Source: Escherichia phage HK6 | Sequence record: PP724615.1 | Length of the DNA: 64,000 bases | Strand: one strand, 5' to 3' | In this document: piece by piece, positions 11,228 to 21,630 of the stretch | How the letters are laid out: every line of letters starts with the position of its first letter | How positions within the stretch are numbered: the stretch's first letter is position 1 | Position numbers and translations under genes: made by a program | The notes under the pieces: model-generated | What the model saw: the letters and a program-made list of their open reading frames with translations, nothing else | Databases searched by the model: none | Told to the model about the DNA's origin: nothing

Positions 11228-11500
11228 GTGAAAAAGATAAATATAAGTACACTTAAACCTTTCCCATATATCGGACAGCCTCTTATACTTATGTGGGAGG
11301 AGAAGATTAATGGAGAAAAGTATACTAAAATTAGAAGTGGGTATAAGCTGATTTCACTTCATTACGAAAAAGAAGTATTAACAGCTGAAATATACTCTCC
11401 ATTATCAGATAGGCTAGTAAAAACCACGTATTTGCATCTCTGCAAAAATTTTACATGGCACGGATCCACTAGACAGCCCACGTACTATGAGGCAGAATAA
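11228..11500 (+). CDS. hypothetical protein, 90 aa (GTG start)
   Basis: ORF starting at GTG with GAGAGGG upstream, ending immediately before the ligase start codon. Confidence 0.4.
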   Translation: MKKINISTLKPFPYIGQPLILMWEEKINGEKYTKIRSGYKLISLHYEKEVLTAEIYSPLSDRLVKTTYLHLCKNFTWHGSTRQPTYYEAE

Positions 11501-12472
11501 ATGACTAATGTAAAAGACTTTATTAAACGTTGCCAAGAAGCGTATTACCAGGGAATGTCTTTAATCTCTGACGAAGAATATGATCGTCTGATTAAAAGAT
11601 TTCCGTTAGAAGAAGAGATCGGGCCTAAGGGCGATATTCCACATCTGTATCGTATGTATTCTTTACAGAAAGTTTATTATAATCGTGGAGATAAACCTCC
11701 ATTTAACCCATTAGGTCAGGTAGAAACTGATAAGTTAGATGGTTGTGCGATTTCTCTGTTATATATTAATGGAGAATTTGTTCAAGCACTAACTCGTGGT
11801 AATGGTATTCTAGGGAATGATGTCACAAGCAACGTAAGATTGCTGAACATCCCTAAAAAGATTTCCCAAAAAGTACCTACTCAAATCACTGGTGAAGTTC
11901 TAATTACAAAAGAAGTAGAAAATAAACGTAACTTTGCCTCTGGTGCTATTAACCTCAAAGATAGTGATGATTTCGTACAACGTATCGGAGAAGGTGGTTT
12001 AATCTTCGTTGCATACGGTATCCAGTGTTCTGCTGAATCTGTAGGTATTACAGAAGCATATTTAAAAGATATGCTTTGGCTAGAGAATGAGGACTTCTTA
12101 ACAGTTGTTAATGTGCGTTCCTTCTTTAAATGGATTCCGACGGACGGTAAAGTTGTTCGTATTAATGATAACAACAAATTCTTTCGTGAAGGCTGGACTA
12201 ATAAATTTCCTCGTGGCGCATTCGCTATTAAAGAAGATGAAGAAGGCGAAATTACAACTCTTACTAAAGTTGAATGGCAGGTAGGGGCTTCTGGTAAAGT
12301 AACTCCAGTTGGTTATTTCGAACCGGTAATTATTGATGATGCTACAATTGTTAAGGCGACTCTTAATAACGTTGATTATATTAACTCTCTTGATCTAGAG
12401 ATCGGTTGCCAGATTCGAGTAATTCGTGCTGGTGGTGTGATCCCGTGCATAGTAGAGCGAGTATACGATTAA
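11501..12472 (+). CDS. NAD-dependent DNA ligase, N-terminal part (adenylation/OB domains), 323 aa
   Basis: N-terminal Ia-domain-like segment (YYQGMSLISDEEYDRL) and adenylation motif I KLDG (ETDKLDGCAISLLY). Confidence 0.8.
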   Translation: MTNVKDFIKRCQEAYYQGMSLISDEEYDRLIKRFPLEEEIGPKGDIPHLYRMYSLQKVYYNRGDKPPFNPLGQVETDKLDGCAISLLYINGEFVQALTRGNGILGNDVTSNVRLLNIPKKISQKVPTQITGEVLITKEVENKRNFASGAINLKDSDDFVQRIGEGGLIFVAYGIQCSAESVGITEAYLKDMLWLENEDFLTVVNVRSFFKWIPTDGKVVRINDNNKFFREGWTNKFPRGAFAIKEDEEGEITTLTKVEWQVGASGKVTPVGYFEPVIIDDATIVKATLNNVDYINSLDLEIGCQIRVIRAGGVIPCIVERVYD

Positions 12473-12522
12473 TACATAACCCTTTGCTACCCATCTACCA
12501 TATCGGAATTATAAAGTGGTTA

Positions 12523-12551
12523 TTGACATTTTCGCCGCTTAGGTATATACT
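12523..12551 (+). promoter_or_regulatory. near-consensus sigma70 promoter between the two ligase genes
   Basis: -35 TTGACA 12523-12528, 17-nt spacer, -10 TATACT 12546-12551; a second T5-type promoter (TTGCTA..TATAAT) follows at ~12614-12642. Confidence 0.55.
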
Positions 12552-12674
12552 ATTATCATTCAGTTGAGGGATAGAAAGTTATGGCGAGGGTAAGCAAAGT
12601 TAGTTAAAATTGTAGTTGCTAAATGCTTAAATACTTGCTATAATATTTATATAAATTGATAAGGAAGAAATTTG

Positions 12675-13454
12675 ATGAAAATCGAAATTCCAACACAATG
12701 TCCCTCTTGTGGTTCTAAGCTAGATCTTGTCAACGGACAATTATTCTGTAGGAATAAGTCCAACTGTCCAGCGCAATCAAGTAAGTTAATTGAGAACTTC
12801 TGTTCAAAAATGAAGTTAAAGGGCTTTGGCCCAAAAACTATTGAGAAGCTGGAGCTGACGAAGATTTCAGAACTATTTTACCTAACCGAAGAAGATTTGG
12901 TTAGAGCCGTGGGTAGCAAGGTTGCCGCTAAGTTAATTAGCGAATTAAATACTAAAGTTCGCGGAGGCATTGACTTTGGTTCAGTTCTCGGTTCTTTAGG
13001 AATCCCTCTAATTGGAGAGGTTGCAGCAAAGAAATTATCCCAAAATTGCACTAGCTTCCACGATGTGAAGGCTGACGGCAAGGCTGGAGAAAACTATAAA
13101 GCCTGGCTAAATTCCCCACAAGGCAAGGATGTTATCGAACTACCGTGGAAATTCTCAACTGGTATTAAGGGCACTAAAGCCGACATCATCATTACAGATG
13201 AGTTAGTTGCCCAGCCAAATGGAATCGCGGTATGTATTACCGGATCTTTGCAAGATTTTGCAAATCGAACGGATGCAACAAACTATTTAGAGAGTCTAGG
13301 ATATACGGTTAAGAAATCCGTTACCAAAGACGTCAAATACCTAATCTGTGAGGATGAATCAAAACGTTCTTCCTCATCTTATAAGAAAGCCGAAACGAAT
13401 GGGATAGAAATCCTGTCGATTAAAGAACTATTGGAGAAAAATAATAATGTCTAA
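12675..13454 (+). CDS. NAD-dependent DNA ligase, C-terminal part (Zn finger / HhH / BRCT-like), ~259 aa
   Basis: Four-cysteine Zn finger CPSCGSKL...CRNKSNCPAQ typical of LigA, followed by a Gly-rich HhH-like region; ATG 12675 with AAGGAAG RBS. Confidence 0.7.
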   Translation: MKIEIPTQCPSCGSKLDLVNGQLFCRNKSNCPAQSSKLIENFCSKMKLKGFGPKTIEKLELTKISELFYLTEEDLVRAVGSKVAAKLISELNTKVRGGIDFGSVLGSLGIPLIGEVAAKKLSQNCTSFHDVKADGKAGENYKAWLNSPQGKDVIELPWKFSTGIKGTKADIIITDELVAQPNGIAVCITGSLQDFANRTDATNYLESLGYTVKKSVTKDVKYLICEDESKRSSSSYKKAETNGIEILSIKELLEKNNNV

Positions 13455-14214
13455 ACTGAACTGGAACGTAGAAGGTGTAACCGAGTCTCTGAAAGCAAAA
13501 GCCACTGCTCTGGGTGTTGCTGTAATCTCTCAAGAACAAGTAGCTGCTATCGCTGCTGAACTGGCTGCTGAAACTGGCAAAGATGTTACTGCTCGCTCTG
13601 TTGGCTCTAAACTGCGTAAAGAAGGTTTTGAAGTACAGAAAGCTAACGAAGTGCAGAAATCTCCGTGGACTCCTGAGCAGGAAGCTGAACTGGTTGATTT
13701 CCTGAACGCTCATGCTGGTCAGTATACCTATGCTGAAATCGCTGCTGCTGTAGCTGGTGGTCAGTTCGGTGCTAAACAGGTACAGGGTAAGATCCTGAGT
13801 CTGGAAATGACCGCTTCTGTTAAACCAACTGAAAAAGCTGCTGCTGTTCGTTCCTTCACTCCGGATGAAGAAACTGATTTTGTTAATCAGGTTGTTGCTG
13901 GTGCTACTATTGAAGCTATCGCTGCTCACTTCGGTCGCAATATTAAGCAGATCCGTGGTAAAGCTCTGAGCCTGCTTCGTGAAGGTCGTATTGCTGCTAT
14001 GCCGGTACAGGAAACTTCAAGTGCTAAAACTCGTGAAGATCTGTTAGAAGGTCTAGATCTGGTTAACATGACTGTTGCTGAGATCGCTGAGAAAACCGGT
14101 AAGTCTGAGCGTGGTGTTAAATCTATGCTGTCTCGTCGTGGTCTGGTTGCTAAGGACTATGATGGTGCCGCTAAGCGTGCTAAACTGGATGCAAAAGCTG
14201 CGGCTGCTGAATAA
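13447..14214 (+). CDS. abundant repeat-containing putative DNA-binding protein, 255 aa
   Basis: Four internal repeats of an HTH-like module (AAIAAELAAETGKDVTARSVGSKLRKEG; YAEIAAAVAGGQFGAKQVQGKILSL; IEAIAAHFGRNIKQIRGKALSLLREG; VAEIAEKTGKSERGVKSMLSRRG); strongly optimised codons. Confidence 0.6.
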   Translation: MSKLNWNVEGVTESLKAKATALGVAVISQEQVAAIAAELAAETGKDVTARSVGSKLRKEGFEVQKANEVQKSPWTPEQEAELVDFLNAHAGQYTYAEIAAAVAGGQFGAKQVQGKILSLEMTASVKPTEKAAAVRSFTPDEETDFVNQVVAGATIEAIAAHFGRNIKQIRGKALSLLREGRIAAMPVQETSSAKTREDLLEGLDLVNMTVAEIAEKTGKSERGVKSMLSRRGLVAKDYDGAAKRAKLDAKAAAAE

Positions 14215-19776: not shown

Positions 19777-21125
19777 AGGTTGTCATATCTAATAAAGCAT
19801 ATTTCAAGCCCGATGATGAACTTTGGGATTATTGTAGTAAGCAAACCACTTATCACATTGAGACAATGACTAGTAAATACCCTATTATGTATAAGAATAG
19901 TGGTGTTGTTGCCAAAGAGATTAAGTGGATTCCTATTACGCGTCTGGACTTACTAGACGCTAAAGGAGTAAAATACGAATTAGTCGATAAACGTACATTA
20001 GCTCCGGTAGATATACCAAAACCTAAGTTCAAACTGCGTGAAGAAGACCAGCTCCCAATATATGAAGAGTGTGATGATACCTGTATTATTAATGGTAAGC
20101 CCGGATTCGGTAAAACTATCCTAGCCCTTGCACTTGCGTATAAATTTGGCCAAAAAACTCTGGTAATATGTACGAATACATCCATTCGTGAGATGTGGGC
20201 AGCAGAAGTTCGTAAATGGTTTGGGTTTGAGCCTGGTATCATAGGTTCTGGGAAATATAACATTGATCCACCAATTGTGGTCAGTAATATTCAAACAGTG
20301 AATAAACATGCGAATAATCTTTCTAAAGTATTCGGTACTGTTATAGTTGATGAGGTTCACCATTGTGTGGCTACAACTTTCACTAACTTCCTAGAAATAT
20401 CATGTGCTCGCTATAAGATTGGGCTATCTGGAACATTAAAACGTAAAGACGGTCTACAAGTTATGTTCAAAGATTTCTTTGGATATAAGATCTTTAGCCC
20501 ACCGGTTAATAATACTGTTGCACCTACAATCCATAGATACTCCGTACCTGTTGAGTTATCAGGGAACCAAAACGTACCATGGGCATTACGTGCTAACGAT
20601 GTATATAATCATCCTGAATATCGAGAGACTATTATAAATCTAGCACATCTATACGTGAATATGGGGCATAAAGTACTCATTGTAAGCGATAGAACAGAGT
20701 TAATCCAAACAGTACTAGAAGCTCTTGCACAGCGTGGTGTTACAACATATGAAATTATAGGGGCAACCCACTTAGATGATCGATTAAAAATTCAGGAAGA
20801 TATAGCAAAAGGTGGACCTTGTGTACTTGCAGCAGCTCAAAGTATCTTCTCTGAAGGTATTTCTCTTAATGAGTTGTCCTGTTTAATAATGGGAAGTCTC
20901 ATTAATAATGAGTCTCTCATTGAACAGCTTGCAGGTCGTGTTCAACGTATTGTCGATGGTAAACTCGACCCTATTGTTGTAGATCTAATTATGAAAGGGG
21001 GCACTGGACTAAGACAGGCTTCTGGACGTATGGCAGTATATCGTAACAACGGGTGGAAAACTATTACCATGACTCCGGAGAAAGCAGTTCAATTAGCTAA
21101 AATTGCATTTGGCAACAGCTCATAA
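19773..21125 (+). CDS. SF2 DNA helicase (DExH-box), 450 aa
   Basis: Walker A GKPGFGKT, motif II VIVDEVHHC, motif III LSGT, motif VI-like QLAGRVQR. Confidence 0.75.
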   Translation: MKVVISNKAYFKPDDELWDYCSKQTTYHIETMTSKYPIMYKNSGVVAKEIKWIPITRLDLLDAKGVKYELVDKRTLAPVDIPKPKFKLREEDQLPIYEECDDTCIINGKPGFGKTILALALAYKFGQKTLVICTNTSIREMWAAEVRKWFGFEPGIIGSGKYNIDPPIVVSNIQTVNKHANNLSKVFGTVIVDEVHHCVATTFTNFLEISCARYKIGLSGTLKRKDGLQVMFKDFFGYKIFSPPVNNTVAPTIHRYSVPVELSGNQNVPWALRANDVYNHPEYRETIINLAHLYVNMGHKVLIVSDRTELIQTVLEALAQRGVTTYEIIGATHLDDRLKIQEDIAKGGPCVLAAAQSIFSEGISLNELSCLIMGSLINNESLIEQLAGRVQRIVDGKLDPIVVDLIMKGGTGLRQASGRMAVYRNNGWKTITMTPEKAVQLAKIAFGNSS

Positions 21126-21208
21126 ATGATGTATAATATATACATAAATTTGAGAGAGAAAGTTTCGGATTGATAAGAAAGTCCGAAGCAGAAAAATAAA
21201 AATTTTAG

Positions 21209-21238
21209 TTGCTAAATTCTCTCGAAATCTAGTATAAT
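21209..21238 (+). promoter_or_regulatory. sigma70-type early promoter (TTGCTA-18-TATAAT)
   Basis: -35 TTGCTA 21209-21214, -10 TATAAT 21233-21238, then ATATACATAAATTCGAGGAG; a second -10 plus ATACATAAATTTGAGAGAG copy lies at 21132-21160. Confidence 0.5.
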
Positions 21239-21345: not shown

Positions 21346-21630
21346 ATGCTTACAGAGCCTGATGCTCACCAATTATTGGTCGGTTCCTCATTCATTTTGA
21401 ATGAATCAACAATAGTTGATAATCCAAATAAATTGTCTAATAGACAACTGGCAGAATATCTAGGAATTTTAAGTCTACGAAATTATGCCGAATACAAGTT
21501 TACAAACGATCCTAGTTTGGACATACAATATGTTCCAGTATGGATACCACGTTTAGTAATCGACACTAACCCACTAATCGCAATTAACAAATCGAAATTA
21601 ATCTTTAAAGAGGAAATAAAATATGGCTAA
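21346..21630 (+). CDS. hypothetical protein, 94 aa
   Basis: ORF downstream of the tandem promoters; weak RBS; no motif. Confidence 0.4.
   Translation: MLTEPDAHQLLVGSSFILNESTIVDNPNKLSNRQLAEYLGILSLRNYAEYKFTNDPSLDIQYVPVWIPRLVIDTNPLIAINKSKLIFKEEIKYG

Follow-up and report, generated by a model that had tools for sequence, protein, structure and literature searches.

Escherichia phage HK6 (PP724615.1), of which a stretch of 64,000 nucleotides, hereafter the window, was analyzed, carries the parts of an NAD+-dependent DNA ligase (LigA) in two genes. This arrangement raises the question of whether the two products form one enzyme or are the remains of a broken gene, and of what the promoters that lie between the genes might do. 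A sequence-only reading had placed the two genes about 200 bp apart and had asked how their products assemble.

Two ORFs that tile one ligase

The upstream gene, ligA (11501-12472, plus strand), encodes a subunit A of 323 amino acids with domain Ia, a nucleotidyltransferase (NTase) domain and an OB fold. Pfam matches to DNA_ligase_aden (PF01653, E = 3.5e-23) and DNA_ligase_OB (PF03120, E = 3.6e-22, residues 252-321) place the OB fold after the NTase domain, as in LigA. The NTase domain carries motif I (KxDG, here KLDG at residues 78-81) together with motifs III, IV and V. Aligned with Escherichia coli LigA, K78/D80/G81 correspond to K115/D117/G118, E132 to E173, D215 to D285 and K244 to K314, while the motif IV lysine (E. 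coli K290) is replaced by Arg220, an arginine that is invariant in the clade. Domain Ia is shorter than its bacterial counterpart but retains the NMN-contact set on which NAD+ specificity depends, with Y15, Y16, D24, Y27 and D28 in place of E. coli Y22, H23, D32, Y35 and D36; a tyrosine at the position of Y16 is also present in the T. filiformis enzyme. In 21 relatives the catalytic residues and those of Ia are conserved and do not vary; within the contact set, Y15 and D28 are invariant among these and Y27 is nearly so. An AlphaFold model of subunit A (pLDDT 88.5) places N-terminal helices at residues 2-16 and 24-33, and its top PDB matches are 9I5I and 9HU3, followed by LigA structures.

The downstream gene, ligB (12675-13454, plus strand), encodes 259 amino acids from its ATG and supplies the remaining LigA domains, a Cys4 zinc finger, HhH and BRCT. 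An alternative TTG start at 12672 (260 amino acids) is the choice of the ORF finder and of the T5 record; in relatives the homologous start is the ATG 3 nt 3′ of it, and chain B of PDB entry 9HU3 (E = 4.7e-81 to ORF B) begins with MKI at the homologous ATG. A Shine-Dalgarno sequence, AAGGAAG (12661-12667, plus strand), was found by direct reading of the sequence 7 nt 5′ of this ATG, and a purine-rich block occupies the same position in 8/8 lineages. The zinc-finger cysteines are residues 9, 12, 25 and 31, which align with the 402-432 region of E. coli LigA, and the BRCT domain scores 33.3 bits against a Pfam cut-off of 21.3. Pfam matches to HhH fall below the gathering score (24.5 versus 27), and the assignment of this domain therefore rests on the LigA alignments.

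Together the two ORFs tile full-length LigA profiles, leaving a gap of about 6-10 positions. On phrog_3869 (656 positions) ORF A covers 9-381 and ORF B 388-654, and on TIGR00575 (652 positions) ORF A extends up to 378 and ORF B covers 388-651. The alignment to E. coli LigA (2OWO) that had been suggested as a check pairs residues 214-320 of A with 284-390 and residues 3-122 of B with 402-529 (E = 7.8e-11), which locates the break in the linker between the OB fold and the zinc finger, at E. coli residues 393|400. About six linker residues (roughly 394-399) are missing, and no docking sequence has been added at either new terminus. The equivalogs TIGR00575 and NF005932 describe all of these domains on one polypeptide; here they are distributed over two ORFs, and the TIGR00575 scores of 174 and 109 bits per subunit, set against a curated cut-off of 444.45, are those expected for halves. 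Families specific to each subunit match over the full length, with ORF A residues 1-323 aligned to 1-325 of the 325 positions of phrog_3359 (E = 3.6e-176) and ORF B residues 1-258 to 1-255 of the 256 positions of phrog_3498 (E = 1.2e-136). An intein was considered and rejected: the termini tile the LigA profiles without extra sequence, and the window shows neither intein nor endonuclease features at the locus.

The domain order across A and B, namely Ia, NTase with KxDG, OB, Cys4 zinc finger, HhH and BRCT, is that of E. coli LigA, with which subunit A also has in common the adenylated lysine and the Ia NMN-contact residues. The phage ligase differs in being two polypeptides rather than one chain and in size, with 582 residues versus 671, or about 88 fewer; the deletions lie within the NTase domain and in the stretch that follows Ia. 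The adjacent genes, on the same strand with ligA 5′ of ligB and the break between OB fold and zinc finger, have the layout of the heterodimeric ligases of Demerecviridae. We conclude, with a probability of roughly 0.93, that the locus encodes the heterodimeric NAD+-dependent DNA ligase of T5-like phages (Demerecviridae), with the promoters P-K28b and P-K28a between its genes.

Conservation of the split and the predicted heterodimer

The same arrangement could in principle arise if a sequencing error or a recent frameshift had broken a single ligA gene; the sequence-only reading had named a sequencing error as what would refute it. However, the spacer (12473-12671) separates the ORFs by 199 bp, every one of its three reading frames contains at least five stop codons, and the ORFs themselves lie in different frames, so that a single indel cannot explain the split. 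At least 80% of the locus is present, with the same layout, in 429 phage records, many of which annotate a subunit A and a subunit B, and 41/41 fetched loci are split at the identical point. Both halves are under purifying selection, with a nucleotide diversity of 0.011-0.013 at second codon positions versus 0.09-0.16 at third positions, and a heterodimer structure exists for the enzyme of a relative. We thus reject a sequencing error or pseudogene, whose chance of being the correct account is negligible, and retain the split ligase of T5-like phages.

The 120 best homologues of A, spanning 99-46% identity, measure 307-337 amino acids, bar one partial sequence of 240 amino acids. This uniform length of about 310-340 amino acids down to 46% identity indicates that the split is fixed across Demerecviridae. 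Farther away, the ligases of the two distant phage-collection matches examined, one from an Erwinia jumbo phage and the other from an Acinetobacter contig, are each encoded by one long gene.

Phage T5 itself carries the pair (T5p114/T5p115, AY692264) in the same order, on the same strand and with the same split point, and the two phages are identical at 320/323 positions of LigA, 249/259 of LigB and 199/199 of the spacer. They differ 5′ of ligA, where the window has an extra 90-amino-acid ORF (11228-11500, phrog_35018) in place of the 87-bp gap that is annotated as a “putative promoter” in T5 st0. The split T5-type ligase is referred to in a passage of a 2006 article (PMC1684257), which cites Wang et al. 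2005.

The question of assembly is answered in principle by two structures, 9HU3 and 9I5I (released 2026), titled [quoted passage not shown]; a search of the library available to us returned no publication for them. Chain B in these entries is 100% identical to the protein of Providencia phage PR1/PSTCR5. The ligase of Providencia phage vB_PreS_PR1 likewise distributes the LigA domains over two chains, divided in the same way (A, 339 amino acids; B, 248 amino acids), its subunits show about 54-55% amino acid identity to those of the window with matches that are essentially full length (ORF A matches 9HU3 chain A with E = 6e-104), and its genome has the same succession of ligA, tandem promoters and ligB, with a spacer of 192 bp.

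By homology to these structures, the HK6 subunits are likely to form an active heterodimer. Subunit A (Ia-NTase-OB) would perform the chemistry, adenylylating itself on Lys78 from NAD+ and then transferring AMP to the 5′-phosphate at the nick, and subunit B (Zn-HhH-BRCT) would provide the DNA-binding half of the clamp by which LigA encircles and seals a nick. The two presumably assemble non-covalently on nicked DNA, as the PR1 enzyme does, with the break accommodated in the flexible OB-Zn linker. The conserved residues of the window's subunits and the PR1 enzyme on nicked DNA both point to NAD+-dependent nick sealing by A and B together. A truncated LigN consisting of Ia, NTase and OB still self-adenylylates, according to a passage in PMC1684257.

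Promoters between ligA and ligB

The spacer had been read as containing a near-consensus TTGACA-17-TATACT promoter and a second promoter of T5 type, and both were recovered. P-K28b (12503-12577, plus strand) has its -35 element TTGACA at 12523-12528 and, after a 17-bp spacer, its -10 element TATACT at 12546-12551, which amounts to 11/12 consensus positions. P-K28a (12596-12670, plus strand) has TTGCTA at 12616-12621, again a 17-bp spacer, and TATAAT at 12639-12644 (10/12), accompanied by an A-rich tract upstream, a TG at 12636-12637 and an ATATT-type discriminator after the -10 element. This pair ranks highest in a 3-kb scan, in which sites with at least 9/12 matches occur at chance level (8 found versus 7.6 expected). 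A stricter filter (at least 10/12 with at least 5/6 in the -10 hexamer) yields 16 sites on the plus strand of the whole 64 kb, and the occurrence of two of these within the 199-bp spacer is far above that density.

Each promoter is identical over 75/75 positions to a feature of the T5 record AY692264, “promoter P-K 28b” and “promoter P-K 28a”, respectively. In the comparison of spacers across T5-like genomes that the sequence-only reading had called for, the hexamers of both are invariant across eight divergent lineages despite diverged flanks; the constant parts are TTGAC and TATAnT of P-K28b and TTGnTATAnTAT of P-K28a. No other stretch of the locus is as conserved as the promoter block (12523-12674), which has a nucleotide diversity of 0.0046, to be compared with the codon-position values given above. 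Literature searches with the promoter sequences as strings gave no match, a search for “PK28” gave unrelated matches only, and the supplement of PMC7472727 does not contain promoter sequences as text. Promoter status follows from the GenBank annotation and from conservation, and use in vivo is probable on these grounds.

With two sigma-70 promoters identical to annotated T5 features in the spacer, ligB can probably be transcribed independently, as had been claimed. The early transcription unit upstream would end with ligA. A simple scan found no terminator after ligA, and 12455-12560 folds no better than shuffled sequences do; a tRNA scan of the window was also negative. Given classical T5 promoters and a Shine-Dalgarno sequence in the spacer, ligB would be expressed both by read-through from ligA and from two additional strong starts. 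P-K28b and P-K28a would also drive the genes downstream, which encode a D5-like transcription regulator (13447-14214, plus strand; phrog_323, E = 1.5e-71) and a DnaB-like helicase. The start of the D5-like gene overlaps the ligB stop (ATGTCTAA), and the order of these two genes is kept in T5 and in 5/5 annotated GenBank relatives examined.

The placement of the promoters invites the idea that expression of the subunits is uncoupled, with B made in excess or at other times than A and acting alone; it might, for example, bind or protect nicks, or regulate ligase activity in connection with the site-specific nicks found in T5-type genomes. Two promoters lie directly 5′ of ligB, whereas in the window no strong one lies directly 5′ of ligA, and one of the PDB entries was made with “phage nick sequence” DNA. 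The ATATT discriminator, a mark of T5 early promoters (PMC7472727), is present on P-K28a and absent after the TATACT of P-K28b, so that the timing of the two promoters could differ, although a promoter class read from a 5-nt motif is a weak assignment. However, the D5-like and DnaB-like genes lie downstream of the same promoters and are served by them equally, which is enough to account for the strength and conservation of the promoters. We therefore regard a separate role for free B as improbable, and continue to view the promoters as serving ligB and the genes downstream of it.

The segment between the promoters (12552-12615) might alternatively act as a leader RNA, or encode an eight-codon leader peptide (ATG 12581 to TAA 12607), that regulates ligB. 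An RNA of 133 nt that begins at the presumed start of P-K28b folds with -30.7 kcal/mol (z = -4.7; 0/200 shuffles as good), the segment is nearly invariant across 28 close relatives, and an SD-like GAGGGA follows P-K28b in T5-like phages, Sugarlandvirus and Vibrio phages. Nonetheless, positions 12300-12800 have no Rfam match at E <= 1, an alignment of the spacer from eight lineages yields 0 predicted pairs and no consensus structure, and the leaders of distant relatives mostly fold like shuffles (z = -0.5 to -2.3) into differing shapes. The length and sequence of the mini-ORF are not conserved either, and the conservation of the segment can equally be attributed to the UP element and the initial transcribed region of the two promoters. 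A regulatory leader is doubtful on this evidence.

An insertion site, and a possible origin of the split

The proximal part of the spacer (12473-12522, plus strand), between the ligA stop and P-K28b, is variable, with a diversity of 0.032 versus 0.0046 in the rest of the spacer, and contains no terminator-like site (fold z = -0.04 versus shuffles). The spacer had been judged too short for a homing endonuclease or an intein, and indeed no ORF of at least 60 amino acids occurs within the 199-bp gap of the window. In relatives the proximal segment is an insertion hot spot. A GIY-YIG ORF (PF01541, E = 1e-5) occupies the gap in Salmonella phage SP3, where it takes the place of roughly 12473-12496, and in one other phage. 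A Proteus-type phage has a NADAR gene (PF08719, E = 1.6e-31), the Vibrio phages pVp-1 and Athena have a DprA-like gene (phrog_768, E = 6e-49) plus a small ORF, and a Proteus phage and Vibrio phage 70E37.6 have small ORFs. All inserts fall between the ligA stop and P-K28b, and the block of both promoters adjoins ligB in every case, whatever the upstream insert.

Phage “genes in pieces” are exemplified by nrdA of Aeromonas phage Aeh1, which is split by mobE, and by the T4 topoisomerase genes for gp39 and gp60. The ligase resembles these in that an essential enzyme of DNA metabolism is encoded by two adjacent genes whose subunits reassemble, and in the GIY-YIG gene that occupies the gap of SP3-type relatives. 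Unlike them, the window and most relatives carry promoters and no endonuclease between the halves, and the split is family-wide rather than sporadic.

A similar origin, compatible with the heterodimer reading, would be that an ancestor of Demerecviridae acquired a mobile cassette at the OB/Zn linker, whether a homing endonuclease of the free-standing kind or a module that carried promoters, with the gap kept since then as a landing site for mobile and accessory genes. The clean break in an inter-domain linker, the variety of genes found in the gap and their confinement to one segment are in keeping with such an event. Conversely, an endonuclease is present in the gap of only two distinct phages (three records) out of 437 records matched, and thus seems to have arrived recently rather than to have caused the split. 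At the split locus that has diverged furthest (41% identity), the gap measures 101 bp and contains a single promoter but no ORF. No fused intermediate appears down to 46% identity among the 120 best homologues of A, and the order of events consequently cannot be reconstructed. A cassette origin is conceivable, but we consider it less likely than not to be how the heterodimeric ligase arose.

The ligase pair and both promoters were already known, being annotated in T5, and the enzyme of a relative has been solved on DNA; for the window itself, the ligase yields nothing new. The additions made here are comparative and modest: across the family, conservation within the locus is highest in the promoter block, and the segment adjoining it is an insertion hot spot. 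A bolder reading, which we consider unlikely, is that the phage uses two strong promoters of different build, placed within the ligase, to adjust the amount or timing of the DNA-binding subunit B separately from the catalytic subunit A. If this were true, free B could bind nicks and leave them unsealed or could tune the ligase in some other way, with a bearing on the site-specific nicks retained by T5-type genomes. As a separate part of this reading, the stretch from the ligA stop to P-K28b would be a family-wide landing pad for mobile and accessory genes (GIY-YIG, NADAR, DprA-like). More generally, the enzyme of these phages illustrates that a multi-domain, clamp-like enzyme can function as two non-covalently joined halves, which is of value both in ligase engineering and in explaining the splitting of phage genes.

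Two ligase genes and the point of division

The sequence-only reading of the HK6 locus proposed that an NAD-dependent DNA ligase is divided into two genes, and both this observation and its interpretation are right. The two ORFs lie on the same strand. In ORF A (ligA, 11501-12472, + strand, 323 aa), Pfam recognises the adenylation domain of NAD-dependent ligases (E 3.5e-23) and the ligase OB domain (E 3.6e-22). ORF B (ligB, + strand) runs from 12672 (TTG) or 12675 (ATG) to 13454, giving 260 or 259 aa, and combines an N-terminus bearing four cysteines with weak helix-hairpin-helix matches and a BRCT domain above the Pfam cut-off. The TTG start at 12672 appears in the ORF finder output and in the T5 record. 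The likelier start is the ATG at 12675: it lies 7 nt after an AAGGAAG Shine-Dalgarno sequence, and relatives as well as PDB chain 9hu3_B start at the aligned position.

Together the ORFs tile full-length LigA profiles with zero overlap. ORF A covers positions 9-381 and ORF B positions 388-654 of the 656 in phrog_3869; the corresponding ranges are up to 378 and 388-651 of 652 in TIGR00575, and 106-385 and 395-661 of 664 in NF005932. Both ORFs were also aligned to E. coli LigA (2OWO), the check proposed for defining the split point. Residues 214-320 of A correspond to 284-390 and residues 3-122 of B to 402-529, ranges that place the end of A at about S393 and the start of B at about R400. Relative to E. 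coli LigA, approximately six linker residues are absent at the break and no extra sequence is present.

The adenylated lysine K78 (E. coli K115) is present in subunit A and invariant in 21 relatives, as are D80, G81, E132 (E173), D215 (D285) and K244 (K314). The NMN-binding residues of domain Ia are likewise kept (Y15, Y16, D24, Y27 and D28, equivalent to E. coli Y22, H23, D32, Y35 and D36). The motif IV lysine (E. coli K290) is replaced by Arg220 (12158-12160), which is invariant in 21/21 aligned Demerecviridae subunit A sequences. Modelled with AlphaFold (pLDDT 88.5), A finds its best PDB matches in the ligase of Providencia phage PR1, followed by bacterial LigA structures.

The sequence-only reading allowed that the division might vanish if one indel restored a continuous ligase ORF. 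This explanation is ruled out: the 199-bp spacer (12473-12671) holds at least five stop codons in each frame and the two ORFs are out of frame with each other, and therefore a single indel cannot join them.

Distribution of the split and insertions in the gap

Megablast of the locus returned 446 phage records, 429 of which cover at least 80% of it, with a best match of 97.7% identity; many carry the annotation "NAD-dependent DNA ligase subunit A / subunit B". The T5 record AY692264 lists ligA (T5p114), "promoter P-K 28b", "promoter P-K 28a" and ligB (T5p115) in the same order, and the HK6 spacer is identical to that of T5 at 199/199 positions. What HK6 carries here is T5's textbook ligA/ligB pair, together with P-K28b and P-K28a, so the feature is already known. 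The split ligase was cited in 2006 (PMC1684257, pointing to Wang et al. 2005), in a study where another LigA, truncated to Ia-NTase-OB, retained self-adenylylation. Two PDB entries released in January and February 2026, 9HU3 and 9I5I, match ORF A at E 6e-104 and ORF B at E 4.7e-81. Both bear the title [quoted passage not shown], with the addition "containing phage nick sequence" in one case. Chain B shows 100% identity to Providencia phage vB_PreS_PR1/PSTCR5; a literature search for a paper on these entries found none.

The 120 best subunit A homologues (99% to 46% identity) contain adenylation and OB domains only and measure 307-337 aa, apart from one 240-aa partial sequence. A and B are separate, with the same break point, in all 41 loci fetched, which span Tequintavirus/Epseptimavirus-type phages, Sugarlandvirus, Novosibvirus, Providencia phages, Vibrio phages and a metagenomic contig at 41% identity. 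The remoter ligases of an Erwinia jumbo phage and an Acinetobacter contig are each encoded by one gene of ∼650-680 aa. From these sequences it follows that the split is old and has become fixed in the family Demerecviridae.

The ligA-ligB gap is an insertion hot spot. T5-like, Sugarlandvirus and Providencia phages have a gap of ∼190-200 bp; elsewhere it is longer. It reaches 344 bp in Proteus phages, with a 55-aa ORF (L002:3492-3659 in one), and 437 bp in Vibrio phage 70E37.6, with a 98-aa ORF (L004:3457-3753). A gap of 801 bp in a Proteus-type phage holds a NADAR-domain gene (L038:2192-2809, E 1.6e-31), and gaps of 1048-1135 bp in Vibrio phages pVp-1 and Athena hold a small ORF and a DprA-like gene (L003:3469-4448 and L005:3469-4361; phrog_768 E 6e-49). 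In Salmonella phage SP3 the gap is 794 bp and contains a GIY-YIG endonuclease ORF (PF01541 E 1e-5). In every case the insert follows the ligA stop and precedes P-K28b, leaving the conserved promoter pair downstream of it. The GIY-YIG insert looks recent, because no more than two distinct phages (three records) of the 437 records matched carry it; that it caused the split cannot be shown. In the IMG/VR copy of SP3 (MG387042) this 213-aa ORF (L031:2199-2840) overlaps the ligA stop with its start and replaces roughly 12473-12496 of the HK6 sequence.

Directly upstream of ligA, at 11228-11500, lies a 90-aa ORF (phrog_35018) that is missing in T5 st0, whose record has an 87-bp gap at this place with the annotation "putative promoter". 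Among close relatives, diversity is very high (∼0.34) over 11401-11500, the 3' end of the ORF and its sole aligned part, so 11228-11500 is a second variable spot.

Promoters of the spacer and the downstream unit

The two promoters that the sequence-only reading placed in the spacer hold up, being the two best sites of the promoter scan and matching annotated T5 features. P-K28b, the distal one (core 12523-12551, + strand), reads TTGACA-17-TATACT (11/12), and P-K28a, proximal to ligB (core 12616-12644, + strand), reads TTGCTA-17-TATAAT with an upstream TG (10/12); 12503-12577 and 12596-12670 are each identical at 75/75 positions to T5's 75-nt promoter features. Weaker promoter-like matches occur at chance frequency (8 found versus 7.6 expected). 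A stricter filter leaves only 16 + strand sites in the full 64-kb window, and the presence of two of these in the 199-bp spacer cannot be put down to chance.

Comparison of the spacer across T5-like genomes, also proposed beforehand, shows that no stretch of the locus is more conserved than the promoter block. In 28 close T5-like sequences, diversity is 0.0046 in the block (12523-12674), compared with 0.032 in the first 50 bp of the spacer, 0.011-0.013 at second codon positions and 0.09-0.16 at third positions. When eight divergent lineages are aligned, invariant columns fall mostly on promoter elements: TTGAC and TATAnT in P-K28b, and the upstream A-tract and TTGnTATAnTAT at P-K28a. Promoter-to-ligB-start distances are kept in 7/8 lineages, the -10 hexamers ending ∼122-132 nt (P-K28b) and ∼29-37 nt (P-K28a) before the end of the extracted spacers, which extend a few nucleotides beyond the ligB start codon. 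L039, the most divergent split locus, has the proximal promoter only. An ATATT-type discriminator, which Klimuk et al. (PMC7472727) give as the hallmark of T5 early promoters, is present on P-K28a and absent from P-K28b.

The presumed P-K28b leader RNA (12558-12690) folds with unusual stability in HK6 (-30.7 kcal/mol, z = -4.7), with a long hairpin pairing 12560-12604 with the P-K28a region. A conserved leader structure was rejected: the leader has no Rfam match, no consensus structure emerged across lineages, and the leaders of distant relatives are less stable, not comparable to that of HK6. An SD-like GAGGGA precedes an 8-codon mini-ORF (ATG 12581 to TAA 12607), which was rejected as a conserved peptide, the peptide not being kept in relatives.

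Elsewhere in the window, a second tandem T5-type pair (21109-21137, TTGGCA-17-TATAAT, and 21209-21238, TTGCTA-18-TATAAT; + strand, ∼100 bp apart) lies between a 450-aa ORF and the ORFs that begin at 21346, both promoters having A-rich tracts upstream and a CATAAATT motif downstream. The stricter scan also detects near-consensus promoters at 36945-36917 and 44100-44072 (- strand), whose sequences probably match the classical T5 promoters PD/E20 and PJ5 described by the Bujard laboratory. A site at 49968-49940 (- strand) has the downstream motif CAT.CAGTTGAGG in common with P-K28b.

Scanning and folding detected no terminator-like element after ligA, and read-through from the upstream unit into ligB is therefore likely. 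The start of a D5-like regulator gene overlaps the ligB stop (13447-13454, ATGTCTAA), which suggests translational coupling, and a DnaB-like helicase gene comes next. Because these genes follow ligB, P-K28b and P-K28a appear to head a replication-gene unit that extends beyond ligB alone.

By analogy with 9HU3 and 9I5I, we infer that the halves assemble on nicked DNA in HK6, with subunit A performing adenylylation and nick chemistry and the Zn, HhH and BRCT domains of subunit B forming half of the DNA clamp. Transcripts of ligB would arise from read-through and from the two spacer promoters, which would also drive the downstream replication genes.
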